Source: a virus
Lineage: Duplodnaviria > Heunggongvirae > Uroviricota > Caudoviricetes
Direction: 5' to 3' (one strand)
DNA length: 42,087 nucleotides
IMG/VR virus record: IMGVR_UViG_2565956712_000007
Positions 7,693 to 36,289 of this stretch are shown here, piece after piece. Both the position numbers and the translations under genes were made by a program. The notes under the pieces are model-generated. The model saw only the letters and a list, made by a program, of their open reading frames with translations. It had not been told where the DNA came from and ran no database searches. Numbering within the stretch: the stretch's first letter is position 1; each line of letters opens with the position of its first letter.

Positions 7693-7709
7693 ATTACCTT
7701 AAAGGTAAT
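7693..7709. promoter_or_regulatory. Operator-like site ATTACC-TTAAA-GGTAAT
   Basis: Perfect inverted half-sites. Confidence 0.6.
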
Positions 7710-7802: not shown

Positions 7803-7894
7803 TTTACATCGCACTCCTCTTGTGCCATAGTAATCGGGCACTGGCAAAATCCAGTGCCGGGATTGGCGTCCCGGATTACTACAGAGGCACATAT

Positions 7895-7915
7895 GCCGCA
7901 TAAGCGGTTTTTTTT
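7895..7915 (+). terminator. Intrinsic terminator in the ant leader
   Basis: Short GC stem GCCGC-ATAA-GCGG followed by T8. Confidence 0.5.
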
Positions 7916-8068
7916 ATGTGTAAAGCGCACCTATTCTATGGTGGGCTGTGTGGGGGCACCGAAAGGTGCGCCGGGTCCTTTGTAGCCGGTTACGCCAACC
8001 CTGCACAGTTCACCACCAACCGATTGGCGTCGGTAGTGGTGATTAACCTAACTACAAAGGTGATCACT

Positions 8069-10556: not shown

Positions 10557-10628
10557 GTCGTTAATTCCTATACGTAGTTTTACGATACTGAAGCCCTGAC
10601 GGTCTGGCCACCGTTGGGCTTCGCTGTT

Positions 10629-15000: not shown

Positions 15001-15028
15001 GATCTTCAGCTTGTGCATAAACTGGCAT
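12014..15028 (-). CDS. Large internal virion / ejection protein (1004 aa)
   Basis: Long late-operon ORF after the other internal core proteins; Gly/Ala-rich segments. Confidence 0.7.
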   Translation of the reverse strand: MPVYAQAEDLNNGLIPSGNVLPEQTGFDVALPEGANPEPLPPEPSVWGAAMRQNNILSGFFRPARQFEPVEGYNPYADKNELHGYEYWGAKFADSRSPEETAWIKQQIDDENEDRRLLSDAGVVGTLASIAAGMDPVTVASMFIPGAQGGALARIGSQIAIGAAGTALSEVVLNNQQITRSWGESAAHVAAGAMMSGVFASAGVALSPSVRAAATREVADALDNMSITSVTDRAAASLSDGGSVGAMKIDTATLDDLTPVSGGWVGKAAWKAGSYLTPLTRLMESPSKTVRKTTLELAENNFTLKGNERGIETPVAVETRTRGWQREEAAVVVGNKQAYAKYKADGGDMSFDSFRQQVGNAMRSGDVHANPVVQETAQAMRTVLNRVKVEMQKLGLLPPDEELKALGQASYFPRIYKVGKIISERDKFRRILVDWWSRGNKTLDPEDAEIAADIVINKITGAKVPQDFVSVFSVKAAGSTKERTLNVPDSLIRDYLESDVNYVLQRHIREAAAEIELTRTFGKRTMTERLQLIEDEYDSLLREVPEKIKAKYDESVANLKARYESNGEVVPQGKLDSLMRKYEKELRKEQSRLSKSRANDLRDITALRDRLVGTYGMPDDPSSFFVRAGAFLRDVNFTTKLGGMTVSAIPDLARGVMVNGFRNTMKGYASQISQSPAFKASKEDMLKMGIGLEAVLHSRSRAIGDLVDSSSRTTAVEAGMERITDAFGKLTLMDRFNDINKSMNGMLTSDGILSGAFSARRMAKLGINDNMAARIRSEFEKHGEVIDGWHIGNFDKWDDQYVAGVFQSAVLKDVNNTIITPGIGDTPLWASTPMGRTIFQFKSFTTASYNRALLGGLQEGTAQFYYGTAFQIALGSLVYALKEASKGKNVDWSPEKLVLEGIDRSGILGPLIEYNNMAEKATGGAVGLGALFGTGTQSRYASRGFVGSLFGPSFGLADSIIDVTAGVLNGDAGDRIAHNVRTLIPGNNLFWIAPLINQVDPVMR

Positions 15029-17745
15029 TATTTAGATCCCCACGAAAAGTAATCTTTAAATTTGTCCATACGTTCGTTATGCAGGCGCTGATACTGCTCA
15101 TCCAGAGCGCGATGCTTGTCTTTGAAGTTTCGTATAGCCTGTCCACGCATAATTTCTTCCTGCTCGTACTGCTCCCGTTCCTGCTGCATTTTCTTATAAG
15201 GTTCCCAATCTTCTAGTGATGGTTCCCAACGCATAGGACGCCCATGTTTGTTATAAAACGGCTGGACCCGATCGATGCCATTTTCATCCTTAGTTCTTAC
15301 CATAATGGCGTAATCACCATTACGGGGTGTTAACACGTCAGGGGTTATGAATAATTCTCCATTAATACGACTCTCAGGGGTTTTTGTCTCAACTACAGGA
15401 GCATTACCTGACGTGATCCCAAGCAACGTCGGACTGGTTGTTATAATCTCTTTGCGCTCACCGTACATCAGCCGTTCTTTTTCAGCTTTCCACTGCGCCG
15501 CCTGCCAGCCTGACGGCCCATATTGATAAAGCGCCTCCGGTGCATATTTCATAAACTGCGCTTCTCCGTTAACCTCGCTGATACTCCAAGTGCGGGCTAT
15601 CTGCTGGTTGGTCATTTGCTTCGCTACGTCAGCGTTACCACCAGCAACGCGGTAGTTAATGTCATACATCGTCTGATAGTCATTACGGAATCTAGCTGCT
15701 TCCGGCGTCTGGTCATCCGCAGACGGATCCCAACGGAACCACTGCGCCATATTGCTGACAGCAGAATTCATCGCCTTGCTGCGATCATTTTTGTACTCTT
15801 TTGAACTCTGCGTTGATGCCAATTGAGCTTTAAGTGCATCGGTCTGGTTGTACGTAAGGTTCTGCGCCTGCTCGATAGCCGCATCAGCAGACATGCCAGA
15901 ATCAGTTAGTTGCTTAACAGTCAGATAAAAACCCTGCATATCCTTCGGCATATTTCCAATAGATGCATTGTCTGTTTCATATAACCGACTAAACAGTTCC
16001 GCCGCATTTTTAACCACTTCCTGATTGCTGGATCGGGATACTGCTGAAAGCTGCGTGATGACCTGCGAAGGCATTATGCCAGTCTGAGCCACAAGCCGAA
16101 CAACCCCATCATGAGTGGAGACATCATTAATACGAAAGTTCTGCGCCATTTCTGTGTAATCAGCAGCTTTCTGCATTGACTTGTTGCTTGGGTCTAATTT
16201 TTCACCTATTGTCAGCGCCTCATTGAATCTGCGTGAATCCCGTTGCGCCTGAATTGCTTCATTTGATCTCTGAAGCAATGCAGACAATTTTCCGTAAGCA
16301 TCGAGTTTTAACGCATAGTGAGGATCGTTAACCTCAGGCTTCACTTTCTGCATTTCTTCTTGCTGCTGAGAAGGAGGCAAATACTGAATTGCCTGGAATA
16401 TTCTCGCGTTATCAATCGCTATATCCAGTTGATTGATTATTTTATCTGCGTTTTTTCCATACCCCCTGATGATGGTCTCCTGAGCCGGTATATAATCTGG
16501 AACCTCACCGTTATATAGCTGGGCCATGGTGTTATTAATAGCTGGCTCAAGCTGTTCTAATATTAACTTCCTTTGCTTTTCTATCTGACTATTAGCAAGG
16601 TTATCTATTTGATAAATAGTCAGTGGATCCATTCCAGTTTTATTTTTTCTATATCGGGAAAGCCACCCTTGTGTTTCTGATGGAAGATTTCGGATAAATT
16701 CTTCTTCTGATATTTCACCTTTACGTGGATCACCGACTTTGGCGATCAGTTTATCCACGTTACCCATCCCCCAGTTATATGCTGCTCCGGTCAATATTTC
16801 TGAGCCGTACTTACCATACAGTTGATTTACATAGTCACTGGCAAGCATTTCATGCTGTTGTTCGTCCGTAGGGTTGTATTCAACGCCACGTTTGGCCGCC
16901 AGTTCTTTCCCTGTGCCCGGCATTAACTGGTATTTCCCCTGGGCCCTCTCTCCAGAAGATGTTTTCGGTCCTTCAAGAATACTACCATCAGGATTAAAAT
17001 GACGATCACCTGATTCAACAAGGCGTATGGCACGCATGTCCATGCCTCCAGAATCATTTTTCTGAAACTGACCATTTAACCATCCTTCCGGATTAGCAGC
17101 GGCATAATTCTTCGCCCGCATTTCTGTGGCACTGCGATCATCACTTTCTATTTCTTCCAGAATGCGTTCTTGTGACCATCCCCTGGCTGCTCCATATCTG
17201 GCAATGGCTACCATTCTGGAATTTCTGGCTAAAGTGGCAGTTTGCGGGTCATTCCAGGCATCCGCTTCATTTTGTATCCATAATTTTCTCGTTGCCTGAT
17301 ATTGCTCATCTTCATAGGCATTTGTCTGCCCTATCTCATGTCTGAGAACTCCAGTACTGAACTGAATTTTCTGTGTTCTGGCTTGTTGCAAAAACATATT
17401 TCTTGCTGCTTCATCAGTCAATGAAGCAGCTATTTCTTCCACATCCTGATCAAATCCAGATATGTACTCTTGCCCCTTACCAATCGCATTTTTGCCTTGT
17501 TGTGCATAAAAACCGGTTTGAGGGTTATAAAGACGTTCATTGCTGCGCTGATTAAGCTGAAGGATGGCATCCTGAGACAATGCAACATTCGCTTTCTGCC
17601 TGGCTTCACCATATGCCACCGCATACTGATCTGCGACATTCGCCAGCACCTGACCTGCTTGAGGAACATCGAAGGTTTGAAAACCACCGGTTTGCACACC
17701 ACGACTTTGCACCTGGCGTCCGGATGTAGTAGGAACAACAGGCAT
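15028..17745 (-). CDS. Internal virion protein with lytic transglycosylase domain (905 aa)
   Basis: SLT-like block RLVESGDRHFNPDG...AQGKYQLMPGTG...YNWGMGNV. Confidence 0.8.
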   Translation of the reverse strand: MPVVPTTSGRQVQSRGVQTGGFQTFDVPQAGQVLANVADQYAVAYGEARQKANVALSQDAILQLNQRSNERLYNPQTGFYAQQGKNAIGKGQEYISGFDQDVEEIAASLTDEAARNMFLQQARTQKIQFSTGVLRHEIGQTNAYEDEQYQATRKLWIQNEADAWNDPQTATLARNSRMVAIARYGAARGWSQERILEEIESDDRSATEMRAKNYAAANPEGWLNGQFQKNDSGGMDMRAIRLVESGDRHFNPDGSILEGPKTSSGERAQGKYQLMPGTGKELAAKRGVEYNPTDEQQHEMLASDYVNQLYGKYGSEILTGAAYNWGMGNVDKLIAKVGDPRKGEISEEEFIRNLPSETQGWLSRYRKNKTGMDPLTIYQIDNLANSQIEKQRKLILEQLEPAINNTMAQLYNGEVPDYIPAQETIIRGYGKNADKIINQLDIAIDNARIFQAIQYLPPSQQQEEMQKVKPEVNDPHYALKLDAYGKLSALLQRSNEAIQAQRDSRRFNEALTIGEKLDPSNKSMQKAADYTEMAQNFRINDVSTHDGVVRLVAQTGIMPSQVITQLSAVSRSSNQEVVKNAAELFSRLYETDNASIGNMPKDMQGFYLTVKQLTDSGMSADAAIEQAQNLTYNQTDALKAQLASTQSSKEYKNDRSKAMNSAVSNMAQWFRWDPSADDQTPEAARFRNDYQTMYDINYRVAGGNADVAKQMTNQQIARTWSISEVNGEAQFMKYAPEALYQYGPSGWQAAQWKAEKERLMYGERKEIITTSPTLLGITSGNAPVVETKTPESRINGELFITPDVLTPRNGDYAIMVRTKDENGIDRVQPFYNKHGRPMRWEPSLEDWEPYKKMQQEREQYEQEEIMRGQAIRNFKDKHRALDEQYQRLHNERMDKFKDYFSWGSK

Positions 17746-18787: not shown

Positions 18788-21252
18788 CAGAATCCCCCAA
18801 CAGTAAGACGAGGAATAACGGCAAGAACAGACAGCGGCAACGGGTCAAGCTGACGGATTCTTACACGTCCGTTTTTGCCCCAGTTACTGTCCAGTTTCAC
18901 TTCTACTTTTCCGGTAGCGTCATCAACAGGATCATCGTAGAACTCGAATTCACGCTGTGGATATTCGTACCATTTACCGCCGGGCGTAGTCGCCCAGATG
19001 CCACGACTGGCATTCACAACCAGAGTAACGGACGGGATCACCTGTTTTTTGTCCAGCAGCGTTTCCTGTCCGTTAATGTTGATATCCAGTGTTTCGAATT
19101 CAGCAGTTATTGGCAGGCCGATGTGCACTACAGCCCCAGGTGATTCCAGCGTGACGGCACCTCCGGAAACCACTTTCTGTGGTTCCACGTTCGCATCAGA
19201 GAGAATGTTTACGGTCTGGCCTTCAAGATGAGACAGGCCTCCAAATGTCCGGCGCGCCATCTGCCAGTTCGTGGTGGCCACATTCCTGAGGGATGGCGGG
19301 ACGTTCCTGTTAGCACGAACCACTACAGCGGTATTGCTGGTTACAGAAATAATGTCGCAACGTAATTCTTTTGACACTTCAGTATCAGGATCAGTTCCGG
19401 TATAAGGGAACTGTAGTTGCGCGCCGACATCACTACTGGTGAAGTACGCACCACCAGAAACACTGATTGTATATTCCGCACGGTAATCCCATTCACCAGA
19501 ACCACCAGTGATGGTCATCGTTCTGTCAGACGTATTTCTTCCATCATAGCTAAGGCCAGAATCAACAAAGAAAGCATCTTCATCGCTGGTAAATAAACGG
19601 CTGGACAGTCGCTCTATGTATCTCACTGTTTGCCCGTTAACGGTTCGGTTAACGACGAAATACACCGCATCTTCATTGCCTTCGCTGATACTGCATGTGC
19701 TTTCATATTTTCCGGTACTGGATTGTGGTGCCCATGCAAAAACCTGCTGATCACGCAAATAGGTCATCACCAGTAATTTACCGTCATCACGAATGCAGAA
19801 GGCGCTGGAGTAAGGGACAATCGAGAAGCACCAGTCAACAATGCTGTGCTTCTGAAAAAGATGATTGGCAAGGATGGTCAGGTCGTTCCCCTGATAGCCG
19901 TCAACATCGAATGAGTAGGCCAGATCACGGACAACACTGCCTTTCTCCTGGACGAACAGAGCAATATTCGCCACGGCAATTGGTGGGACATTGCTCGAGC
20001 CATTTGATCCCTGAGAGCTGAATGCAAATGATGATGGGGTAAGCACTTTGTTCTGGTCGCCAGTGATGACGTACTCACCTCCGGAAGTCAGCGCCACCAG
20101 CGAACCAACATCAATCAGGTGACGGATCTCATTAACCTGACGCCCGGCATAGGTGTAGATAATTCTGTCGTCATCCTGCGTAGGATTGCTTTTGCCAAAA
20201 TCCTTATAATCCCCGGTACGGCTGGCCCAGATAGTCTGAGGGAACGCAGTCGATGCGGCGAAGTAAAGGCGTTGTTGATAATAAACAACAGTGCCAGGAT
20301 AACCGTTAATACTGTTCCAGGCATATTTAGCCCATTTATAGCTGGCATTATCCTCGCCAACTACCTGCGAAGGGATATAGGAAATCACCTCGGCAGTTGC
20401 AGTAGTTCCATTTGCAGCAGAGATACGGGCAATGCCAAAACCACTGTGCAGATACTCCCACTCAATGCCGGTATCATCATCACCGGATCCGCCCCAGCCA
20501 TCCCATGATGTGCCTTCTGTATGCGAAGGGCGCAAAGTGCCTGTTTTGCCTGCTGTAACGGCGCGATAGTAGTTACTGTCTGCACGGCGAATATCGCCAA
20601 TCGACGTACTCTTACTGGTTTCCCATACCGGCACAGAATCCACTGCAGGCTGTTCCAGATAGAACAATTTGCCTACCTGCTCCGCGCCAAAAATTGAGGC
20701 GCTTGCCGTTAACGTAATTGTCCCGGTGCTGGCGCTGGCATAAACCGTCACTGACTCGTCAATATTGATATCTTCAAATGGCCCGTTCTTCGTTACCACA
20801 TCAACCAGTTGCCAGTTGTCATGCGCATAGCGGCGCAACTCTTTCGGCGGGTATGCCGGATGAACCAGCGTAAGCACGTCTGCGCTTTGCGTGAATTTAA
20901 TTCGGAACAGATCGGCTTCAGTATATGGCGTGGCAATTTCATAAATAACATTGCTGCTGTTCAGCACCAACGCACCATCTTTGATAACGCGCATGTACTG
21001 GTGTCCGAACTCCAGAGCATAAGTCTGAACCGTCGAGAACTGGAACGGGATCAGGCGGCATTTCCGATTTGGGTATTTGGCGGCACCGACAAAACGCGTA
21101 CCAGGTCGATTCTCAACGCCGCCATACTGCCGCACGATAAAGTTATCGCACTTGCGCAATGCCACCTGGTACTTCGCCATGTCGATACGACCGTACAACG
21201 ACGGTCCAATCTCACCACCGGCAAAGCTGGGCTGGATCCAACTGATAGCCAT
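18787..21252 (-). CDS. Tail tubular protein B-like / nozzle protein (821 aa)
   Basis: Size and position after a roughly 200-aa tube-A-like gene in a T7-like order. Confidence 0.65.
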   Translation of the reverse strand: MAISWIQPSFAGGEIGPSLYGRIDMAKYQVALRKCDNFIVRQYGGVENRPGTRFVGAAKYPNRKCRLIPFQFSTVQTYALEFGHQYMRVIKDGALVLNSSNVIYEIATPYTEADLFRIKFTQSADVLTLVHPAYPPKELRRYAHDNWQLVDVVTKNGPFEDINIDESVTVYASASTGTITLTASASIFGAEQVGKLFYLEQPAVDSVPVWETSKSTSIGDIRRADSNYYRAVTAGKTGTLRPSHTEGTSWDGWGGSGDDDTGIEWEYLHSGFGIARISAANGTTATAEVISYIPSQVVGEDNASYKWAKYAWNSINGYPGTVVYYQQRLYFAASTAFPQTIWASRTGDYKDFGKSNPTQDDDRIIYTYAGRQVNEIRHLIDVGSLVALTSGGEYVITGDQNKVLTPSSFAFSSQGSNGSSNVPPIAVANIALFVQEKGSVVRDLAYSFDVDGYQGNDLTILANHLFQKHSIVDWCFSIVPYSSAFCIRDDGKLLVMTYLRDQQVFAWAPQSSTGKYESTCSISEGNEDAVYFVVNRTVNGQTVRYIERLSSRLFTSDEDAFFVDSGLSYDGRNTSDRTMTITGGSGEWDYRAEYTISVSGGAYFTSSDVGAQLQFPYTGTDPDTEVSKELRCDIISVTSNTAVVVRANRNVPPSLRNVATTNWQMARRTFGGLSHLEGQTVNILSDANVEPQKVVSGGAVTLESPGAVVHIGLPITAEFETLDININGQETLLDKKQVIPSVTLVVNASRGIWATTPGGKWYEYPQREFEFYDDPVDDATGKVEVKLDSNWGKNGRVRIRQLDPLPLSVLAVIPRLTVGGF

Positions 21253-21860
21253 CAGGACAACCTCGCAATGGTAAACTCGTCAACCGGTGGCTGTGGTTCC
21301 TGTGATTCATTCTGGCTATGCGAGCCAGCACTAAGAATCACGCGATTGTACATATTGAGGGCAAACGTACCGAGGTCTGCATTCCCAGTGAGCGCCATGT
21401 TAATAGCTGCCGCAAGACGCCAGGCCAACGCCTCCATAAAAATGGCATCAAACATGTTCACATCTGAAACGCGAGAGACATACTTGAGCCATGCCTGCGG
21501 CTGGTCTGTGTAGATCAACTTTCCTGTTCCGTTGGTGTCTGCACCAACTTCGTACTGAACGCGCATTGCTGCTGTTGGATTGCGTACACCAGGAAGCATA
21601 ATTTCAGTAATGCGCAGACAATCGGACGGGTACTGGTACGCATATTCCCAGTCAGGCGGTGGATTGCTCGTATCTGCAAGCGCCACGCGTTTGGTAGCAA
21701 AGTTCCAGTCAAAATCAGAAAGAACAGCATCACGGCAGGCCTCAAAGTGCAGCGAACATTCCCCCGCTTCCTTGCTGGCTTCCGTCAGGCTGTTAATACT
21801 GCGGCTGTTGCCAATATTGGACAGCGCACGATTACAGATCTCTACTACAGAGGCCATCAC
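21252..21860 (-). CDS. Tail tubular protein A-like / adaptor (202 aa)
   Basis: Size and position. Confidence 0.55.
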   Translation of the reverse strand: MMASVVEICNRALSNIGNSRSINSLTEASKEAGECSLHFEACRDAVLSDFDWNFATKRVALADTSNPPPDWEYAYQYPSDCLRITEIMLPGVRNPTAAMRVQYEVGADTNGTGKLIYTDQPQAWLKYVSRVSDVNMFDAIFMEALAWRLAAAINMALTGNADLGTFALNMYNRVILSAGSHSQNESQEPQPPVDEFTIARLS

Positions 21861-22186
21861 TCACCTCCGTTACCGTACAGAGTTTCAGCCGCTGATTTTT
21901 CTACATCCCTGGAAACAGGAGCGATCGCCATATCAGTGATCTGCAGATCGGCGCTGCGATTAACACCATCGTCAGTTTCTCTGGCAGACAGGCCTCGAAT
22001 AACAGCCTTTGCAGTTATCATCACTTCTGTTCCGACGCCCTGAGGTTGCGCCTTCAGCTTATTCAATGTGTCGTTATTAAGAGTGATGCACAGCCCCCAC
22101 GGGTATTCATCGCGAGTTCTGGTTTCTCCGCTCTCATCCTGGTAGCTGTCAGTGCCGGTTTTGAGGTTTACGAGTTCCATATACAC
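21857..22186 (-). CDS. Structural protein, hypothetical (109 aa)
   Basis: Late-operon position, RBS AGGAGTG. Confidence 0.55.
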   Translation of the reverse strand: MYMELVNLKTGTDSYQDESGETRTRDEYPWGLCITLNNDTLNKLKAQPQGVGTEVMITAKAVIRGLSARETDDGVNRSADLQITDMAIAPVSRDVEKSAAETLYGNGGE

Positions 22187-22230
22187 TCCTGCAATAAAGG
22201 GGCCGAAGCCCCTTGTCGGATTCGCGAGGC

Positions 22231-22575
22231 TTACACGCCCAGTTCTTTACGCTTATCTGCGATCTTCTCTCGGAGCGTTTCGGCTTTAGCGTTATGGTGT
22301 GGCTTCTCGTTAAAGAGCAATTCGTACTCTTCACGGAGCTTATCCAGTTCACCATCATCTGACACATCGTTGATGATTTTGGTGCTGGTTGCTGCCATAG
22401 ACACCTTTCCTGCTACCTTTGCTTTTGCCTGTCTGGCTGCATCGTTAACAGGTTCCAGTGCGCTACCAGGCTCACCTTCGTATTCGATTTCTGCCCCCTC
22501 CGGCCACAGTGTGTTATGGATATGAGAGAGGCGCAGAACGCGGTATCTTGGTTTCTCACCTGACATCGATATCAC
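22231..22575 (-). CDS. Structural protein, hypothetical (114 aa)
   Basis: Late-operon position; followed by an intercistronic hairpin. Confidence 0.55.
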   Translation of the reverse strand: MISMSGEKPRYRVLRLSHIHNTLWPEGAEIEYEGEPGSALEPVNDAARQAKAKVAGKVSMAATSTKIINDVSDDGELDKLREEYELLFNEKPHHNAKAETLREKIADKRKELGV

Positions 22576-22576
22576 C

Positions 22577-23014
22577 TTAACCAGTTACTTTTGAGCGGAT
22601 CGGGTACGGCGTATTGGCATCAACATCCAGACTGATACCCGCAGTGAATTTGCCGGCCGTTAGTGGGCCAGTTGCGACGGAGTAGTTAACACGCAGATAT
22701 CGCTGAACACCGGCTGGCACCTTTGCAGAAACAACTCGCTTACCTGCTGTCAGGGTGGCCTTTGCCAACGCACCACTATCATAAATAGTGGTCCAAGAGC
22801 TGTTATTCTCACTCGTCTGCAACTGGATGTTTACAGTTGCCTCACCACTTGCCGTGGCGGCTTCGTTAACCAGCACCCAAAACTCAAGCGGGTAACCCAC
22901 ACCGATATCGCGACGGTTTCCATCAATTGGACCGAGATCGATTACGTCAGTAGAAGCCGCGGTATTCGTAACCGCCTGAGCTTCGGAGAACATCAACAGT
23001 TTGTCGGTGATCAT
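22577..23014 (-). CDS. Head-associated protein, hypothetical (145 aa)
   Basis: Immediately downstream of capsid gene, GGAGA RBS. Confidence 0.55.
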   Translation of the reverse strand: MITDKLLMFSEAQAVTNTAASTDVIDLGPIDGNRRDIGVGYPLEFWVLVNEAATASGEATVNIQLQTSENNSSWTTIYDSGALAKATLTAGKRVVSAKVPAGVQRYLRVNYSVATGPLTAGKFTAGISLDVDANTPYPIRSKVTG

Positions 23015-23065
23015 CTTCTTTCTCCATTAGTGGGTCTGTTACGACCCACAGGTTAATAACAGGCG

Positions 23066-24058
23066 TTACACCACGCGGGCTTCTGTTTCCAGAAGCGCAT
23101 CAGTTTCACGGATTGGTACACCACGGAATGACGTCCACCACTCGCCTTCAGTCTCTTTTACGCTAATCGCCAGAGATGTTTTCTCCAGAGACTGCAGATC
23201 AAGAGCCTGGCCTACAGTGCGGTTCATGTAGAACACCGGGCGACCCATGCCACGGTTTGGAATGCGATGCAGTGCTTTAACCATCAACTTCGCAATATTT
23301 GCGGCAGAGGAAGGTTCTGAAAGATTGCTGACATCGATGTTTGCAATGCGAACAACATAACGCCAGTCACGCAGAGCAAGTCCGTTGTCCCATTTGTAAT
23401 GGGTACGGTAGCCTTCGTACTTGCCGCCATTAGCATCTTCCAGTGTCACCTGGCCTTTATCTTCCATCTGAATGCCAGCCTTCTGCCCTTTCGGGAAGAT
23501 GCCATGCACGGTGTTTTCGCCCCACACCACTAACCAGATTGAGGTGTTATCTGTGCCCGTGCCACCAGCATCAATGATGTTCTGAGCATTACCTGCAGAC
23601 AGGCTGGAATAGCGGGAGGACAGTCCCATAAACTGCTGAGGGTTAACGCTGGAATCACCATAAAACAGCGTCTGCGCCATCTGCTGATTCATCGCTTCAA
23701 TAAATGCGCGGTCTTCAGACAGGCGGAATTCGGCGGTATTGCCGTTCAGATCAGCCAGTGACTTATCGACTTCAGCATAGGTTTCCAGCATGCCAACGGA
23801 ATCGGTTACCTGCACTGTGGTTGATTTGCTTGGCTGTACGCCATAGTTCAGCAAACGCCAGGTAGCTGAAGGTAAACCAGAACGAATGGTGGTTCGGTGT
23901 CCGGTAGGAAGGTTCCCTTCGACAAAAGGCATATCCTGAAGGATCGGGTTAGTTTGACCGAGAAGCTCGATAATCTTATCGACTTTCCCGTTTGGATCGA
24001 CGCGCTTACCCCAGTCAGCCAGCGTTAGCGCAGTTAAGCCTTTAACAGCCATTGTCAT
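23066..24058 (-). CDS. Major capsid protein (330 aa)
   Basis: Position after the scaffold-like gene; size; followed by an intercistronic hairpin. Confidence 0.75.
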   Translation of the reverse strand: MTMAVKGLTALTLADWGKRVDPNGKVDKIIELLGQTNPILQDMPFVEGNLPTGHRTTIRSGLPSATWRLLNYGVQPSKSTTVQVTDSVGMLETYAEVDKSLADLNGNTAEFRLSEDRAFIEAMNQQMAQTLFYGDSSVNPQQFMGLSSRYSSLSAGNAQNIIDAGGTGTDNTSIWLVVWGENTVHGIFPKGQKAGIQMEDKGQVTLEDANGGKYEGYRTHYKWDNGLALRDWRYVVRIANIDVSNLSEPSSAANIAKLMVKALHRIPNRGMGRPVFYMNRTVGQALDLQSLEKTSLAISVKETEGEWWTSFRGVPIRETDALLETEARVV

Positions 24059-24066
24059 TTCCTCTC

Positions 24067-24768
24067 TTATTTGCCATAGAGCACTTCGGCCGCACTACGC
24101 TGGCCTTCATTACCACCGGTGACCATGCCATCTTCAGACATCGCCTTTCCGATTTTCACGAACGTTTTGACCAGGTCAGGGTGATTACCCAGTCCGGTGG
24201 TGTTCAGATATTCTTTGAGTTCAGGTGTCCCGAACTGGTCAAGCGCACGCTGTGCGGCGCTAAGGTTAGAAATCAACTTGTCGCCACCGATTTCTTTGTC
24301 AGCTTTTACATCCGCAGCCCACTGCTCGGTTGTTTTCTGCCAGGCTTCTGCCTGGCGCTGCTGAACACCTGCCAGAATCTTCGGATAAGCATCAACCAGC
24401 TTTTGCGCTTGCTCGTTGGTCAGGTTTAGTTCTCGCGCCACCGGCTCGAATTCCTTCAACGCTTCTGTATCCAGCTCTACGCCTTCGGCAGCCTGAAACT
24501 CGTACTTCTCAGGCGCACCCTCTGGTTTATCGCCGCCCTTTTTTTCATCCTGCTTATCGTTTTCAGGCTTTTTGTCATCAGCAGGTTTATCGCCATCAGA
24601 AACAGGTTGTGGCTTATCACCTTCCTGTTGTGATGGATCACCAACTGGAGCAGGGTTATCATCTGCATGCGCTGACGGTTCTGACGCAGCCGGAGCTGCC
24701 CCACCATCGACTTGTTGCTCATTGCAAAGACGGCGATACAGCAAACGCTCAAATAAACTCATGATCAC
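24067..24768 (-). CDS. Scaffolding protein (acidic, low complexity)
   Basis: Acidic, Pro/Asp/Lys-rich N-terminus with helical C-terminus; between portal and capsid. Confidence 0.65.
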   Translation of the reverse strand: MIMSLFERLLYRRLCNEQQVDGGAAPAASEPSAHADDNPAPVGDPSQQEGDKPQPVSDGDKPADDKKPENDKQDEKKGGDKPEGAPEKYEFQAAEGVELDTEALKEFEPVARELNLTNEQAQKLVDAYPKILAGVQQRQAEAWQKTTEQWAADVKADKEIGGDKLISNLSAAQRALDQFGTPELKEYLNTTGLGNHPDLVKTFVKIGKAMSEDGMVTGGNEGQRSAAEVLYGK

Positions 24769-25061
24769 TCCTGTTCACTGGCCTCTTTGGCCATCTTCAA
24801 ATACTGTTCAGGGCAATGCGCCATAACGCGCTGAAACAGTTCCAGCGCCAGATTGCGTTGCCCCTCATTAAATGCCATTGCCATAGCATCCATCGGAGAG
24901 ATAGCGGAAAACACCCGGCCTTTCTCCAGCACCGACCAGACAACGCGACGCCCCTGTTCACTGCTCATGACAAAGCGAATGTCATCAATTTCACGCTGTG
25001 CCATGTCACGTTGCTTACGGGCGTTTTCTTCTTTCAGTTGATCGTCTTCGTAATCTGTCAT
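24765..25061 (-). CDS. Hypothetical protein (98 aa) between portal and scaffold
   Basis: Overlapping start/stop coupling with neighbours. Confidence 0.5.
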   Translation of the reverse strand: MTDYEDDQLKEENARKQRDMAQREIDDIRFVMSSEQGRRVVWSVLEKGRVFSAISPMDAMAMAFNEGQRNLALELFQRVMAHCPEQYLKMAKEASEQE

Positions 25062-26737
25062 TGTGATTGCCCACCCTGACCACTAACTGCATTCGCCATA
25101 GCTGACAACACACTCGGATCCGAAGTTTTAGCTTCGCTTAGCGTCTTGGCCCCCTGTGCCGCCGCCATCCCCATCGCCATCATTTGTTGCTGCTGTTGTT
25201 GCTGTGCCCGTTGCTGGCGAGCCTGCTCAACCTGTTCCTGCGGAACAATGACGGTTGGAGACACTCCGGACATATCAGCGAATGCATCGATCGCCTGATC
25301 AACGTTGAGTTTGTCGAGAGCTTCTGGTTTCGCTTGCGCAAGTTGACCAATGAAGTTAACCGTGGACGCCAGACTGGACAGGCCGATAGACTTCTGCGCC
25401 TGAGCCATGACGGAAATGTATTCGACCTTCAGGGGCATGCCTTCCATCGCGTCAGGCGGTGGCGGCAGCATGTTTTTGCGCACCATCATCGAGAAAGCGC
25501 GGTCAATGAGAGGATTAAGACATTCGTCGTTCAGACGCTCCAGAACCGGCCCCAACATCAGAAGTTTTTCTTCTTTCATTTCGATCACCGCTTCAACAGG
25601 CATCGAGCGGGTATTGATGTTCTGCAACATCATGAACAGATCGACAAAGTAGGCGCTGTTAATGATTTGACGAGTGTCCTGAATGTCTGCCACCAAATCT
25701 GCTGTACTGGGGTTAACCAGATAAGCAGGCCTGAAGCCATCCTGACCAGTAATCTGATCGATATACGTGATGTCGCCAGGAAGAAGGGAGGCGCGCTGAT
25801 TCTTGAGGGAATTCGGAGCAACCATCGGCGGATTGGTGGCTTTATCAATCAACTGCGACTTGCGCTTCTGGAGAAGCTGCAATGCCTTAACAGGTCCAAG
25901 CGCCAGCATACCCGGGCATGATGATCCATAAACATCTTCGCCGTTAACTTCCCAGCGCGGAGCCATAATTGGAAACTCATCGAATCCGGACTCACGCAAC
26001 AACTTGTCGTTATCTCCACCAACCTCGTAATAAACCGATTTGAATGGCTTGTTCTTGCTATCCAGCTTCGATGTATCGCGGTCAATGTTCGGGTAAACCG
26101 AATGCATCACTTCGATCCACTTCTCGTAGGTGCCGCTTTCCCACATGCTTTTTACGGATTCGCTGACGTTATTTAGCCCGAACTCCTGAACAAGCTGACG
26201 AACAGTCATAGAGAACTTGCGAAAACAGGTGTCAACACTGCCACGAGGTGAGTTAGCCAGGTAGTAACTGCCTATCGGGAATGGCATTGTGCGAATGATG
26301 TCCTCGTCATCCTCCAGCACTGCCATTGCACCAGTGCTGTATGTGCCGAGGCTTCCGTATAACTGCGGAAGAGACTGGTAGAGATTCGACTTATTGAACA
26401 TATCGTTCATGCGGTTCTGAACTGCCTCAAGCCACAACTTAACAGGGCCATAATCCATCATTTCAGGATCTGGCGTAGCCAGGCGAAACCACGGACGCGC
26501 GGGGCTTGTGATGCCTGACATCATGCCGCTGGCGAGAGTGCGCGCCGCCATAGTCCCGGTCGAATCAATAATGCGTGTATTGCGCCGATCGTTACGGTTG
26601 GCCTCAGAAGTCAGAAAGCGGGAACCACGCGGGTTGATGTAATCACTCAACTCGCGCCAGTGCGGCTCGAACGACTGACGCTCGCTTTCAAGTTGTGCGA
26701 ACTGTTTGTTCAATCGCTCTTTAGTTGTTTCCGCCAT
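25058..26737 (-). CDS. Portal (head-tail connector), T7-like type
   Basis: 559 aa; Gln/Ala/Met-rich C-terminal tail (QQQQQQQMMAMGMAAAQG) like podovirus connectors. Confidence 0.8.
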   Translation of the reverse strand: MAETTKERLNKQFAQLESERQSFEPHWRELSDYINPRGSRFLTSEANRNDRRNTRIIDSTGTMAARTLASGMMSGITSPARPWFRLATPDPEMMDYGPVKLWLEAVQNRMNDMFNKSNLYQSLPQLYGSLGTYSTGAMAVLEDDEDIIRTMPFPIGSYYLANSPRGSVDTCFRKFSMTVRQLVQEFGLNNVSESVKSMWESGTYEKWIEVMHSVYPNIDRDTSKLDSKNKPFKSVYYEVGGDNDKLLRESGFDEFPIMAPRWEVNGEDVYGSSCPGMLALGPVKALQLLQKRKSQLIDKATNPPMVAPNSLKNQRASLLPGDITYIDQITGQDGFRPAYLVNPSTADLVADIQDTRQIINSAYFVDLFMMLQNINTRSMPVEAVIEMKEEKLLMLGPVLERLNDECLNPLIDRAFSMMVRKNMLPPPPDAMEGMPLKVEYISVMAQAQKSIGLSSLASTVNFIGQLAQAKPEALDKLNVDQAIDAFADMSGVSPTVIVPQEQVEQARQQRAQQQQQQQMMAMGMAAAQGAKTLSEAKTSDPSVLSAMANAVSGQGGQSQ

Positions 26738-26751
26738 TTCAATGACTCCGG

Positions 26752-26958
26752 TTACTGACCAAGCAGCGTTTTACCGCTGGTATTAGCGGTTGATGTGTCG
26801 CCCTGAGAACCGGTAAGCAGCGTAGAACTACGACCAGCAGCAGCGCGACGGCGACGTGTTTCTTCGTCGCGGGCATCAACAACGGCAGCATCCTGCTCCT
26901 GTGGTGCTGCCTGAACTTCTGGTGTTGCAGGCACTGATGGTGAGCTACCCATGCACAT
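26752..26958 (-). CDS. Small hypothetical protein upstream of portal (68 aa)
   Basis: GGAG RBS; low-complexity sequence; could be spurious. Confidence 0.35.
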   Translation of the reverse strand: MCMGSSPSVPATPEVQAAPQEQDAAVVDARDEETRRRRAAAGRSSTLLTGSQGDTSTANTSGKTLLGQ

Positions 26959-27047
26959 ATCAATGACTCCGTACGCAATTAAATTATTACCAATTTAACC
27001 ACATATGATTTATTTATCGTAGATAGTTGACATTTAACGCGCGAATT

Positions 27048-27064
27048 ATTACCTTTCAGGTAAC
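27048..27064. promoter_or_regulatory. Operator-like site ATTACC-TTTCA-GGTAAC
   Basis: Same half-sites and same spacer as the 6573 site. Confidence 0.55.
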
Positions 27065-27385
27065 TAAAGAGTTCATTCCGGTTACTAACCTGACTGGCTT
27101 GTCGTTAAATTGAACAGGTGGAGTGAGCTTTTATTTTGAGCAGTACGGCGTATGGCACATGCGACGATAGCGGTCTGGATACGTTTAAGGGGCACCCTCC
27201 CTTGCTCGGGCAAACGAACCAGGTAGCCGGAATGTGCAAGTCGAGCGGTTTTATTCCGCGCACGGGGATTCACCATCCCGGCGATTCGGTGTGACGCCTC
27301 GGAAGAGACGAGGGTACAACGATGAGAGCATTTATGGAGCCGCGACAAAGTGTGGTGCCTTAACAGGCTAAGTGCTCTCAGCGTT

Positions 27386-27462
27386 GTGGCATTAGCTCAG
27401 TTGGACAGAGCAACCGCCTTCTAAGCGGTTGGTCGCAGGTTCGAATCCTGCATGCCACGCCA
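27386..27462 (+). tRNA. tRNA-Arg (anticodon UCU)
   Basis: Hand-folded cloverleaf: 7-bp acceptor GTGGCAT/ATGCCAC, D-stem GCTC/GAGC, anticodon stem ACCGC/GCGGT with loop CTTCTAA, T-arm GCAGG-TTCGAAT-CCTGC, discriminator G, encoded CCA. Confidence 0.85.
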
Positions 27463-27505
27463 GAATCACGCCTAAGGACCGTGATGCCAGAAGTTCCAGG
27501 GGCTT

Positions 27506-27547
27506 GGCGGTGATGGTTTCCCTTGAAGGACTATCACCGCCCTTTTT
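27506..27547 (+). terminator. Hairpin + T5 downstream of the tRNA
   Basis: 9-bp stem GGCGGTGAT / ATCACCGCC with large loop, then CTTTTT. Confidence 0.5.
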
Positions 27548-27625
27548 ACAGCAGGACGCCATTGCGATGACTTCATGCTGTAAACCAGTACAGCCACGGA
27601 AGGCATAACTCATTGCTTCCAGTTC

Positions 27626-27650
27626 GCCCGGTTCGCCGGGCATTTTTTTA
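27626..27650 (+). terminator. Intrinsic terminator GCCCGG-TTCG-CCGGGC + T7
   Basis: Perfect stem with tetraloop followed by ATTTTTTTA, 10 nt before the moron RBS. Confidence 0.7.
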
Positions 27651-27660
27651 AGGTGAGATT

Positions 27661-28083
27661 ATGAAGACAATTGATATGTTGGCTAAGTATCTAAATGAAT
27701 GGCCATTAAAATATTCTCGTATCGTTCAGGCTGAAGACTGCGTTTTTTATGGCGTTTTTGCTGGTAATGAAATGCATTACGAAGTAATTCAGAGTGAGGG
27801 ACTGACCGGGTTAACTCTTAGCGAAGACCATGGTACTAGCGTTACGTTCCATGACTGGATAACAGCACAACGTTCTGAAATGGAAAAAGGCGATGTGTTT
27901 GATATTTCTCGCGCTGTATACGCCAAAGAAAAAAGTGATGATGATTACATGCGCGAAAACTTATACAACATGAAGTTACAATGCCTGGCTGAAGTGCTTA
28001 GTAAAAGATCTTTACTTGATGTGGTTGGTGCTGAGCAGGACGCCAAGGCAATCAACGCCGCATTCGATAAAATAACCTTCTAA
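27661..28083 (+). CDS. Moron protein (140 aa), function unknown
   Basis: RBS AAGGTGAG; antisense to late operon; own terminator. Confidence 0.6.
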   Translation: MKTIDMLAKYLNEWPLKYSRIVQAEDCVFYGVFAGNEMHYEVIQSEGLTGLTLSEDHGTSVTFHDWITAQRSEMEKGDVFDISRAVYAKEKSDDDYMRENLYNMKLQCLAEVLSKRSLLDVVGAEQDAKAINAAFDKITF

Positions 28084-28087
28084 CGCA

Positions 28088-28099
28088 GTGACATGTCAC
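28088..28099. repeat. 12-bp perfect palindrome GTGACATGTCAC (copy 2)
   Basis: Exact 12-mer, 4 nt after the moron stop, 4 nt before the terminator hairpin. Confidence 0.9.
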
Positions 28100-28103
28100 A
28101 AAC

Positions 28104-28130
28104 AGCCAGCCGATGAGCTGGCTTTGTTTT
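28104..28130 (+). terminator. Intrinsic terminator AGCCAGC-CGATGA-GCTGGCT + TTGTTTT
   Basis: 7-bp perfect stem and T-rich tail. Confidence 0.75.
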
Positions 28131-28173
28131 ATCCTCATCAGAGGATATCAACGACATTATCCCCACCAGCGGA

Positions 28174-29649
28174 TTAAGCATAGGGATCGTAATCTGTGAT
28201 GGCCTTGCCTTGCTGGTTCTGCTGACCGGGAATTCGCAGACGCTTCGACACAGGGAACGCAAACGTCAGCAGTAGCGCATCGCCTTTACCAGGAGAACGC
28301 CCAAGCCGCTCCTTGATATCTTCCTTCTGTTCGATAATGATTTTACCGTCCACGCGAACTTTGTACTCTGCCGCCGACAGGTCGTCCGCTGTTTCCTGGT
28401 CATCCAGCATGCCGCCCAGCCTCAGCCATGTCTTGCATGAATTGAACATCTCCCCACGCTTGTTGAGCATCTGCGGGTCAGTAGACGCGCCACCGAACGG
28501 AACAAGTTGCCATGTACGACCCCATCCGTCACCGATTGACTTCAAACCGGTTCCGTAACCGAAGTCGATGAACACCGCGTCAGCCTGATACTGGTCTTCA
28601 AAGTCAGCGATACGCTTTGCCATAATCAGATCGTCAGTGGTCTTGTTGCCAGTCCACAGCACCTTACTGTGCAGCCCCTGCCGCAGGTATATCACAGCGT
28701 CATCAACGCCTGAGTATGCCGGGTCAACGCCGATTATCACCGGAGCATGTGCAACCTGCGCAGCGGTGACCACCCGTTTCATTGCCTCGTCAGTAAGTCC
28801 GGTAGGGATAAACTGCAATTCAGATGCATCCGGGAATATGCCGCGCACACGGATTTTAACGAAGTCGCTGTCTTCCCCGTAGTCATCAACCCATTTCTGC
28901 AACTGCTGTTTGTTGGTGCCTTCCACCGTCCGGCTGTCAATCTGCGCAGTTTTCCAGCGGTGTTTATATTTGCGGAAACATTCGCGGAAACGTCCGGTAT
29001 TACGCGTCGGGTTTCCGAACGCCACCCAGATAATCTCAGTGTCTTCGTCCGTTAGCGCACCCTCGGCAACTTCCCACACCAGATCCGCAATGTTCGACGC
29101 TTCATCGAATACCACGATGATGCGTTTGCGCTCGTTGTGTAGTCCGGCGAATGCCTCAGTGTTGTGCTCAGACCAGGGTATTGCGTCAGCTCGCCACCGC
29201 TTGTCGTGTCCAGGATCATTGCTGTACATCGCGGTAGCGGTACAGGTAAACCAGTCTTTCGTGATAGCAAGGTTCGACCACTTGATAATTTCCGGCCAGG
29301 TCTTCGTTCGTAGCTGGTTGTCGGTGTTGGCGGTCACCACAACCTTACAATCCTCGCAAGTGGACATGCCCCAGTTGATCAGCATTGAGATGAATGCGGA
29401 TTTACCAATACCGTGACCCGAAGCGCGTGCCAGCATAAGCGGCTGATAGCGCGTCTCTGGATTCTGCAGGTGATCACGTATCTCTCGGAACGCATCAGCC
29501 TGCCACTGACGTGGACCGGTGGCATGTGCCAGTTCAGTCCCATCTTCCCCCCACGGGAACGCATAGAGGGCATAGCCAAGCGGATCGTGAGTGAACCCTG
29601 CAATATCCTCGATTAACTGCTCTTCAGGAGATAACGCTGTATCTGTCAC
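28174..29649 (-). CDS. Terminase large subunit
   Basis: Walker A-like SGHGIGKS; 491 aa; overlaps small-subunit gene by 4 nt. Confidence 0.85.
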   Translation of the reverse strand: MTDTALSPEEQLIEDIAGFTHDPLGYALYAFPWGEDGTELAHATGPRQWQADAFREIRDHLQNPETRYQPLMLARASGHGIGKSAFISMLINWGMSTCEDCKVVVTANTDNQLRTKTWPEIIKWSNLAITKDWFTCTATAMYSNDPGHDKRWRADAIPWSEHNTEAFAGLHNERKRIIVVFDEASNIADLVWEVAEGALTDEDTEIIWVAFGNPTRNTGRFRECFRKYKHRWKTAQIDSRTVEGTNKQQLQKWVDDYGEDSDFVKIRVRGIFPDASELQFIPTGLTDEAMKRVVTAAQVAHAPVIIGVDPAYSGVDDAVIYLRQGLHSKVLWTGNKTTDDLIMAKRIADFEDQYQADAVFIDFGYGTGLKSIGDGWGRTWQLVPFGGASTDPQMLNKRGEMFNSCKTWLRLGGMLDDQETADDLSAAEYKVRVDGKIIIEQKEDIKERLGRSPGKGDALLLTFAFPVSKRLRIPGQQNQQGKAITDYDPYA

Positions 29650-30242
29650 TGATTACCATCCTGACGTTCTTTGAGTCGCTTCCTGGCTGCTGCTATGCGA
29701 TCAGCAATTGTCACATTCACATTAACATCCAGACGTTCTTTGAATGCGTTGACATCAACATGCTTACCAATCAGCTCAAGGTTCTTCACCTTGTCAGGCC
29801 ATTTAATTTTTTTGAGGATTGTCTCTATTGAATCCTCGTTCATGTTCATGATGGTCGATGACAGATCAAAGCCACTAAGCGTAGTGCGCCAGATTTTCGG
29901 CCACTCACGGATTGGTTTAAGGCTCCCATCGTCGTTGAGGATGTCGATCACGTCCATCTGGTCGATCTCCACCAGGCGCATGAGAACGTAATCAGCACTG
30001 ACACGCATTCGTTTGTTGCGCTCCTCCATCAACTCGGCAATCCGTTTCTGAATGCGTTCATCGCGCATCATGACACTGGCTTTAACTGCCGCTGTATTTG
30101 GGGAGAATCCTGCGTTAATCGCAGCCTGAGTCTGGTTTTCAGGCGTTTTGATGTATGACTGGCAATAAGCCTCCTGCATTGCTGTGAGCGGCTTAAATTG
30201 CGTTGATTTGCGTTTATAGGTTTTAGGTTCAGCAGGCATCAT
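29646..30242 (-). CDS. Terminase small subunit (start probably the ATG-ATG at 30242/30239, not the track TTG at 30320)
   Basis: Terminase_2-like region LTAMQEAYCQSYI...AAINAGFS; upstream 78 nt hold an operator-like site and a terminator hairpin. Confidence 0.7.
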   Translation of the reverse strand: MMPAEPKTYKRKSTQFKPLTAMQEAYCQSYIKTPENQTQAAINAGFSPNTAAVKASVMMRDERIQKRIAELMEERNKRMRVSADYVLMRLVEIDQMDVIDILNDDGSLKPIREWPKIWRTTLSGFDLSSTIMNMNEDSIETILKKIKWPDKVKNLELIGKHVDVNAFKERLDVNVNVTIADRIAAARKRLKERQDGNQ

Positions 30243-30258
30243 AACCACCGTGGTAATT

Positions 30259-30275
30259 GTTACCGTTGTGGTAAT
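30259..30275. promoter_or_regulatory. Operator-like site GTTACC-GTTGT-GGTAAT in the terminase leader
   Basis: Inverted half-sites, 5-bp spacer. Confidence 0.5.
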
Positions 30276-30280
30276 AGTAC

Positions 30281-30311
30281 CATGCAAAATAAAGCCGCCA
30301 TAGTTGGCGGC
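30281..30311 (-). terminator. Hairpin terminator upstream of the late operon (tR'-like)
   Basis: GCCGCC-N6-GGCGGC followed on the minus strand by UUUAUUUUG. Confidence 0.55.
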
Positions 30312-30352
30312 AGTATTCAAAATCCATCAAATTCATCATGCATAATCTACTC

Positions 30353-36224: not shown

Positions 36225-36289
36225 TTCACCCATAAGGTAACAAAAATCAAGGATAGTTACCCATGAGGTGCATTTACCTGTTGGGTAAT
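36225..36289. promoter_or_regulatory. OR-like operator cluster of three 17-bp sites (36225-36241, 36256-36272, 36273-36289)
   Basis: TTCACC-CATAA-GGTAAC, GTTACC-CATGA-GGTGCA, TTTACC-TGTTG-GGTAAT between divergent cro-like and cI-like genes. Confidence 0.7.

Follow-up and report, generated by a model that had tools for sequence, protein, structure and literature searches.

Layout of the locus

The IMG/VR record IMGVR_UViG_2565956712_000007, a stretch of 42,087 nucleotides (nt) to which all coordinates refer and which we call the window, is a nearly complete prophage of the phiV10/epsilon15 type (Uetakevirus). Between its terminase and portal genes lies a locus, 27027-28133, that appears from its sequence to be a single plus-strand transcription unit, conserved in Uetakeviruses and antisense within the late operon. 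Its order is promoter-like element and operator, a structured RNA that we call X-RNA, tRNA-Arg(UCU), two conserved RNA segments that each end in a terminator, and a cargo slot for an open reading frame (ORF). We hold this description with much higher confidence than any reading of what X-RNA does. The features are as follows.

27027..27055, plus strand: promoter-like element, TTGACA (27027-27032), 17-nt spacer, TACCTT (27050-27055), from reading of the sequence
27049..27063, no strand: repressor operator TTACCTTTCAGGTAA, overlapping the -10, from motif statistics and the epsilon15 annotation
27145..27385, plus strand: X-RNA, an undescribed structured RNA of ~240 nt, from covariation; its 3' end abuts the 5' end of the tRNA
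27386..27462, plus strand: tRNA-Arg(UCU) with encoded CCA, from ARAGORN and Rfam RF00005 (73.3 bits; gathering score 29)
27463..27550, plus strand: 3' trailer of the tRNA, with a hairpin AUCACG..CGUGAU, a single-stranded stretch and terminator T1 (stem 27506-27541); fold z = -2.6
27551..27649, plus strand: conserved leader with hairpins and terminator T2 (stem 27626-27641, then AUUUUUUU); fold z = -3.0
27650..28083, plus strand: ribosome-binding site (RBS) AAGGTGAG and cargo ORF of 140 amino acids (aa) (PHROG 4846; ORF 27661-28083, ATG start)
28104..28133, plus strand: terminator T3 (hairpin 28104-28123) after the ORF and facing the end of terL, from a hairpin scan; phiV10 annotates the equivalent

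A first interpretation made from the letters alone (the sequence-only reading) had described a tRNA and a moron inserted antisense between the terminase and portal genes. The location was right. The insertion is not recent: the RNA part is found at the same place in Uetakeviruses of E. coli, Salmonella, Klebsiella and Enterobacter, and the cassette is conserved in the genus, with the ORF alone swappable. For all but the ORF, this is the outcome that the sequence-only reading had itself named as a refutation.

A structured RNA precedes the tRNA

What had been taken for spacer, the 240 nt from the operator to the tRNA, encodes a conserved structured RNA. No other element of the locus is as constant as this X-RNA. 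In a covariation set of 35 diverse copies, 95.5% of the cells were paired, against 27-46% with slid partners; 11 pairs were altered on both sides, and the covariation score was reached by none of 500 shuffles. The fold begins with a hairpin (P1) and a long-range helix (P2) that encloses the variable domain. The loop of hairpin P4, CACC, pairs with a downstream GGUG to form a pseudoknot, which itself covaries (CACC/GGUG becomes AACC/GGUU in one lineage). Hairpin P5 has the loop GAAGAGA, and P6 (CAAC-GAUGAGAGCA ... UGCUCUCAGC-GUUG), a helix with several compensatory variants, closes a hypervariable insert of 20 to more than 250 nt. A covariance model (CM) of X-RNA, R1, scored 159.7 bits in the window and matched the plus strand only. 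This one-strand match and the invariant G-U pairs place X-RNA on the same strand as the tRNA.

Searches of known RNAs returned nothing. The region 27145-27385 matched no family of Rfam 15 at the gathering score or at E values up to 10, and in five related loci Rfam likewise gave nothing for X-RNA. An annotation was not found in the sampled RefSeq matches or in Rfam, the position of X-RNA was unannotated among the RefSeq matches listed, and neither its sequence nor a description was found in the literature searched. Motif inspection led us to reject RNase P RNA, transfer-messenger RNA and group I or II introns, as well as retron msr, omega or bridge RNA and Y RNA, because the conserved cores or partner genes are absent and because Rfam would have found most of these classes.

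Some smaller sequence elements were seen within and beside X-RNA. A 13-codon ORF (AUG AGA GCA ... UAA, 27321-27362) lies inside it, just 5' of the tRNA-Arg(UCU). We considered a leader peptide with AGA as its second codon and discarded it, as many relatives lack the AUG. The 3' strand of P6 (27365-27385 and relatives) reads (C)AGUGCUCUUUCC GUUGUGG in many copies and UGCUCUCA in the window; it has a likeness to the rrn boxA, UGCUCUUU, followed by a GU-rich stretch like boxC. A functional boxA was also rejected: the UGCUCUUU-like strand covaries with its P6 partner and is imperfect in the window, and the likeness may be accidental. Just 5' of X-RNA, at 27120-27144, the window has GGAGUGAGCUUUUAUUUUGAG (GGAGUGCGCUUCCAGGUGUG in relatives), which resembles the motif at the 3' end of X-RNA and looks like the remnant of a preceding unit; this stretch is absent from SPN1S.

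Occurrence and surroundings of X-RNA

X-RNA was present in 1840 of 5426 complete E. coli genomes, about one third. By blastn it was found in Uetakeviruses and in many lambdoid phages (mEp460, cdtI, 2H10, Ayreon, and Stx2a, Stx2c and Stx2k phages), in P1/P7-like phages, and in phages of Klebsiella, Enterobacter and Salmonella. Its most conserved 19-mer was found in at least 120 contigs of IMG/VR, which represent 107 distinct versions; the invariance of this 19-mer in the alignments is partly a product of selecting the loci by it. One Enterobacter copy has GGUGGCC in place of GGUAGCC. When a genome collection was scanned with a 16-mer, X-RNA was found at 14 of the 120 loci, all of them in Enterobacterales, and the rest were chance matches.

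The surroundings were counted over 130 loci. In 69 of them X-RNA lies just downstream of a gene for a cI-type or helix-turn-helix repressor, on the same strand; another 43 occupy the Uetakevirus slot, and 12 the ban operon of P1, which is controlled by C1 through the operator Oban. In mEp460 the stop of cI is followed by a terminator, by two operator-like inverted repeats with TTGCAT-N17-TATCTT and, ~40 nt later, by X-RNA; then come a tRNA-like RNA, a strong terminator and the first early-left gene, whose acidic 120-aa product has no arginine-rich motif of the N type. Phage cdtI has another operator and promoter ahead of the same X-RNA. In lambdoid phages, X-RNA takes the place of nutL/N of lambda and of putL of HK022. 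A strong terminator on the same strand stands ~320 nt downstream in 77% of the X-RNA loci.

The tRNA found downstream of X-RNA was always tRNA-Arg(tct) (29 loci and the window). It starts 15 nt past the start of the 3' motif in 28 of the 29 loci; in the other one, L099, the motif search did not find the 3' motif. Loci of the P1 type have a tRNA-Ile2 14 nt upstream of X-RNA. Most lambdoid loci and the Uetakevirus-like prophages of Enterobacter carry, at the position of the tRNA, a tRNA-like RNA with the terminal stem GUGGUG...CACCAC. After the tRNA or the tRNA-like RNA come a conserved hairpin, a short variable stretch and a strong terminator. The Enterobacter relatives keep X-RNA and have no tRNA. 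Because relatives carry the tRNA-like RNA at this position, X-RNA is the constant element, and a true tRNA is an optional occupant of the position that follows it.

The tRNA-like RNA (mEp460, L003 3241-3375; Enterobacter prophage, L256 2649-2795) is 130-150 nt long. Its GUGGUG..CACCAC stem is followed by AAC, it has hairpins like a D-arm and a T-arm, and ARAGORN does not call it. The same Enterobacter prophage (L256 2016-3010) has the same operator, promoter and X-RNA, and a duplicated module of the P6 type before the tRNA-like RNA.

In epsilon15 the tRNA was lost through a secondary deletion, which left just the first ~70 nt of X-RNA, fused to the 3' half of T1 (L129 2603-2722); the deletion endpoints share the motif CCCTTGATGCT.

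Operator and predicted promoter

TTGACA and the -10/operator are kept at a spacing of exactly 17 nt in the E. coli, Salmonella, Klebsiella-type and Enterobacter lineages, while the letters of the spacer vary. A consensus scan did not call this promoter-like element (27027-27055), because its -10, TACCTT, matches at only 3 of 6 positions; TACCTT is also the left half of the operator TTACCTTTCAGGTAA. The operator-like site that the sequence-only reading had seen upstream is a real operator: the motif TTACC-N5-GGTAA, with at most one mismatch, was counted 14 times in the window where 0.69 are expected, and 14 was reached in none of 100 shuffles. A pair at 36226 and 36274 lies between divergent cro-like and repressor genes, further sites lie ahead of terS and near the C4/isrK region, and the homologous site in epsilon15 carries the record annotation 'repressor; lysogeny'. 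As the operator overlaps the plus-strand -10, repression is predicted in the lysogen; the repressor would cover the promoter, which probably makes the unit an early operon under repressor control.

The sites listed were 6574, 7694, 7787, 8827, 27049, 30260, 33881, 33943, 36274, 36986 and 37048, with 3 more that have one mismatch. Such operators, scattered over the whole prophage, are closer to the dispersed C1 operators of P1 than to an immunity region of the lambda type.

The tRNA and codon usage

ARAGORN called a single tRNA in the window, the tRNA-Arg(UCU) at 27386-27462 on the plus strand, and the covariance model of Rfam placed it far above the gathering score; the gene is intact, with its CCA encoded, as first thought. 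The host gene argU (E. coli C) has the same T-arm, the same anticodon loop CUUCUAA and, but for one change at position 21, the same D-arm and loop; where the acceptor and anticodon stems depart from argU, the changes compensate each other. Arginyl-tRNA synthetase recognizes the identity elements A20, C35, U36 and G73. All four are kept in the phage tRNA, G being the discriminator, and by these features it looks like a working tRNA-Arg(UCU).

The UCU anticodon reads AGA. A crude ORF set of the window contained 7.4 AGA and 5.6 AGG per 1000 codons; AGA is about 3.5 times commoner than in E. coli genes, if the general figures of ~2 AGA and ~1 AGG per 1000 codons are taken for the host. The AGA codons are concentrated in tail and ejection genes, with 13 in the tailspike gene and 23 in the two large ejection-protein genes; some early genes also have them, and terS, terL, portal and capsid have 0. 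Given this enrichment in tail and ejection genes, a supply of AGA decoding is a reasonable function to propose for the tRNA.

The spread of AGA is very uneven, with 36 codons in three tail and ejection genes (3494-6469, 12014-17745) and none in the head-morphogenesis genes (21252-30320), which suggests modules of different origin.

Other phage genes for tRNA-Arg (argN/argO of Stx phages, the tRNA-Arg of T4) and the host argU share the UCU anticodon and the identity elements with the tRNA of the window, and the phage of the window is rich in AGA. Unlike argN/argO and the tRNA-Arg of T4, it is fused head-to-tail to a structured RNA, and in related phages a tRNA-like RNA takes its position. A tRNA-Arg is already annotated at this spot in the O157 typing phages 9 and 10, phiv142-3, SPC32H/N and others. 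The tRNA-Arg with a variable accessory ORF, as first noted, is real and ordinary, being annotated already in several relatives.

Terminators and the cargo slot

The scan found four terminator-like hairpins on the plus strand, where shuffles gave 1.7 +/- 1.6; the hairpin at 27078-27097 is weak. This count alone is not decisive; T1 and T2, however, are conserved in relatives with compensatory changes in their stems, as in the T2 stem, which covaries between GCCCGG/CCGGGC and GCCCAC/GUGGGC. The three terminators seen from the letters alone are all present (27506-27541, 27626-27641 and 28104-28123). The leader at 27551-27649 is conserved in epsilon15, ahead of a different ORF.

The trailer at 27463-27550 is shaped like a small RNA (sRNA). 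In relatives, the segment between the tRNA or tRNA-like RNA and T1 (L008 2131-2250; trailers of L006 and L011) resembles an sRNA with a swappable seed. Several of these trailers contain GCUGUGUGUAGUC, as in RprA, and reach 50 bits with the Rfam model of RprA, below its threshold of 70 bits; the trailer of the window, 27463-27550, has another sequence at the position of the RprA-like seed. Literature searches that covered RprA-like prophage RNAs and Uetakevirus tRNAs gave no description.

The plus-strand ORF of 140 aa at 27661-28083, noted from the start, occupies a real cargo slot, and a good RBS, AAGGTGAG, stands 4 nt upstream of its ATG. When the region downstream of the tRNA was aligned for 28 distinct relatives, collinearity extended as far as the T-run of T2 and the RBS AAGGTGA; past this point at least 5 different ORFs start, or none. 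Among the loci that span to terL, the slot holds a member of the 140-aa family in 7, a member of the Gp49/66 family in 9 and neither in 14; with partial loci included, the counts of the 140-aa and Gp49/66 families rise by a few. A protein of the Gp49/66 family occupies the slot in phiV10 and epsilon15, and the slot of the Enterobacter prophage L256 holds three ORFs (PHROG 4846-like, Gp49/66 and one of 82 aa).

The 140-aa product matched PHROG 4846 over residues 1-140 of 140 (E = 4.7e-92), a family restricted to Enterobacterales. It had no match in sequence searches of Pfam, PADLOC or the PDB. The structure prediction that the sequence-only reading had proposed for it was carried out and was uninformative as to fold: the AlphaFold model had a mean predicted local distance difference test score (pLDDT) of 61.7, and Foldseek searches with it against the PDB and BFVD gave nothing below E = 0.04.

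No promoter-like site was found by the scan between T1 and the ORF, and the sole predicted promoter upstream is covered by the operator. With no promoter-like site of its own and two strong terminators ahead of it, the ORF needs read-through for its expression, as had been suggested from the strong terminator before its RBS (the T-run of T2 ends at 27649). These properties, together with repressor control, predict that the cargo ORF is probably silent in the prophage. It resembles the morons of lambdoid phages in being swappable between fixed boundaries with a terminator after it. It differs from them in lacking a promoter-like site of its own and in standing behind two terminators in a repressor-controlled operon. 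The name moron is thus apt for the exchange of the ORF, and probably not for a classical moron of lysogenic conversion, since the operator overlaps the -10 of the promoter.

Prophage setting

The late genes around the unit and the integrase are located as follows.

25058-26737, minus strand: portal
26752-26958, minus strand: gp3 homologue, 68 aa
28174-29649, minus strand: terL
29646-30320, minus strand: terS
40837-42087: integrase

By blastn, the region is matched over its full length by the Escherichia phages HEMP4 and PAS61 (~95% identity), and its part outside the ORF by phiV10, TL-2011b, the O157 typing phages 9 and 10, and others. The chromosome of E. coli strain 85.0412 has a prophage adjoining guaA in which the gene order across the region is as in the window and the copy of X-RNA is 100% identical. 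That prophage is integrated beside guaA, and the integrase of the window is at 40837-42087, in agreement with the earlier view that the tRNA is phage cargo and not the attachment site.

Elsewhere in the window, isrK, the C4 antisense RNA and sar RNA scored above the Rfam thresholds at 7838-7914, 7934-8020 and 10558-10625. These matches, with operator sites at 7694 and 7787 alongside, point to an immI region of the P1/P22 type (antirepressor control).

Comparison with put antiterminator RNAs

In putL of HK022, stem I is formed by the pairs C10-G14/C30-G34 and has a bulge with the essential U28 (PMC9378689, cryo-EM numbering). P1 of X-RNA (ACGGCG...CAUGCGUCG, then AGCG) has the same five pairs (CGGCG/CGUCG) and an AUG bulge containing U28, so that stem and bulge are identical to those of HK022 putL. 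Both HK022 putL and the annotated putL-like RNA of HK639 begin with ACGGCG...CAUGCGUCG, as X-RNA does, and HK022 putR has the same stem with a compensatory change; in X-RNA, the pair G6-C18/A-U of P1 covaries. Besides the X-RNA loci and HK022 putL, the signature CGGCR-N5-20-ATGYGYCG-N0-4-AGCG hit only 1 of ~105 unrelated loci. A motif CGG(C)AAUG(N)UGC on the 3' side is also common to X-RNA and put.

The positions of the two RNAs are alike as well. Each comes shortly after a repressor-controlled early promoter and ahead of terminators, beyond which lie genes. Like put, X-RNA is carried by lambdoid phages that show no N gene at its usual place (mEp460, cdtI). Antitermination by a put-like RNA has been suspected in an N-less lambdoid phage related to 2H10 (PMC12315714), and 2H10 carries X-RNA. 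By analogy, X-RNA may work like put.

The two RNAs also differ. The put RNA measures ~70 nt. X-RNA, at ~240 nt, also contains three further helices, a pseudoknot and a variable domain, and it has a tRNA or tRNA-like RNA behind it. The latter arrangement is known from other systems: in the RNase P-processed C4 of P1/P7 and CI of P4, and in MALAT1-mascRNA, a functional RNA is followed by a tRNA-shaped element, as here. None of these RNAs has similarity to X-RNA in sequence or in Rfam, and the processing of X-RNA by RNase P is putative.

Proposed role and alternatives

The interpretation that we favor, and to which we give slightly less than an even chance, is a repressor-controlled RNA operon that combines an X-RNA acting in antitermination, like put, with a tRNA that decodes AGA. 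The unit would be silent in the lysogen and would fire early after induction or infection. Transcription would start near 27062, X-RNA would fold as it is transcribed, and a cut by RNase P at 27385/27386 would release X-RNA and the tRNA. The tRNA would add AGA decoding for the AGA-rich genes of the tailspike and ejection proteins. X-RNA would act on the transcribing RNA polymerase as HK022 put does, so that T1 and T2 are passed and the cargo ORF is reached; in lambdoid phages without N in the usual position, it would let the polymerase reach the early-left genes. We infer the timing, the processing and the antitermination from the observed parts, their conservation, the covarying fold, the operator statistics and the contexts. 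Antitermination by X-RNA, taken as such, is possible and somewhat doubtful; we rate it slightly below an action in trans, and leave the remaining probability to other or mixed functions.

A number of results weigh against this interpretation. CM R1 of X-RNA had no match in HK022 or HK639, nhmmer with a profile without the variable domain found no put match, and a CM of put (R2) run against the X-RNA loci had no match at X-RNA. In a permissive alignment scan, the put windows reached only z ~2.3-2.6 and were not ranked first. X-RNA conserves neither G35, an essential base of put, nor G36, the junction being U/A/C(U) and not GG; a stem II of the put type could not be mapped. There is one copy of X-RNA per phage, and no equivalent of putR. 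In P1, X-RNA has no P6 domain and is 2.3 kb from the promoter. The -10 at 27027-27055 is weak and was not called by the consensus scan, read-through at T3 would send transcription antisense into terL, and codon supply is the role usually presumed for such a tRNA. The layout of promoter, RNA, tRNA-like unit and terminator also fits a self-contained gene for a noncoding RNA (ncRNA). We did not file X-RNA as a put RNA, since only a short signature is shared and homology is not demonstrable.

A second explanation is a serious contender, although we place it on the unlikely side. X-RNA would be a stable early ncRNA that acts in trans as, for instance, a sponge or decoy directed at a host protein or a defence system. 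Its 3' end would be set by RNase P, for which the tRNA or tRNA-like unit would serve as a signal and nothing more; the transcript would truly end at T1, and the ORF would be expressed only by leak-through. The order of promoter, RNA, tRNA-like unit and terminator is that of a complete gene, and the conserved fold, with its pseudoknot and three further domains, far exceeds the ~70 nt of put. The P6 insert and the 'seed' of the trailer are hypervariable, the profile tests against put were negative, and phage regulatory RNAs released by RNase P, such as P1 C4 and P4 CI, are known. A trans-acting RNA, however, leaves unexplained how early-left genes are expressed past a strong terminator in lambdoid phages without N in the usual position, and why cargo ORFs that seem to lack a promoter of their own always stand directly behind T2. 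Nor does any gene for a partner protein co-occur with X-RNA.

The original account, in which a tRNA and a moron expressed in the lysogen were inserted and the rest is spacer, is unlikely. The intact tRNA, the enrichment of AGA and the variation of the ORF between relatives agree with it. For the noncoding part it is contradicted, as the supposed spacer is a covarying RNA in one third of the E. coli genomes searched; in addition, the cassette does not change place within the genus, repression in lysogens is to be expected from an operator that covers the -10, and the Enterobacter relatives have X-RNA without the tRNA.

Phage tRNAs that neutralize tRNA-cleaving defences are known, and the acceptor and anticodon stems of the tRNA of the window differ from those of argU. 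The tRNA might then serve against host defence, as a substitute tRNA-Arg that an anticodon nuclease of the host fails to cut, and not as a codon supplement. We regard this as quite improbable: the anticodon loop, the T-arm and nearly all of the D-loop are as in argU, which leaves the usual determinants of such nucleases unchanged, and the enrichment of AGA is a simpler reason for the tRNA.

That the conserved 240 nt code for a minus-strand protein (27085-27348, mEp460_037, with PhiV10p04 over the tRNA) is contradicted and can be given almost no weight, for although such ORFs exist and are annotated in two records, the substitutions in the helices are compensatory, the lengths of the indels are not divisible by three, the lineages do not share the ORFs, no feature is annotated there in cdtI or RefSeq, and PhiV10p04 overlaps a bona fide tRNA.

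Returning to antitermination, the broader proposal is that X-RNA represents a new class of protein-independent RNA that reprograms the host polymerase, as a large relative or an analogue of put. We offer it tentatively and think it rather less than probable. N-less lambdoid phages, P1 (ban operon) and epsilon15-like phages would use this RNA to bring early transcription past intrinsic terminators; RNase P would take the adjoining tRNA or tRNA-like unit as the release signal, and the tRNA-Arg would be a co-opted, working version of that signal.

Significance

Annotation pipelines currently put spurious ORFs over X-RNA. The minus-strand ORFs over the tRNA and X-RNA, namely PhiV10p04 (L001 2934-3185), mEp460_037 (L003 2943-3311) and 27085-27348 and 27392-27643 of the window, are almost certainly spurious.

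The locus matters for the widespread structured RNA ahead of the tRNA, which is found in P1, in Stx2-converting phages and in about one third of the complete E. coli genomes. If X-RNA is not an antiterminator, it is still a widespread and complex phage RNA. If it is one, it would account for the expression of early genes in a sizeable set of N-less lambdoid phages, and it would be a second, much larger example of the control of RNA polymerase by RNA alone.

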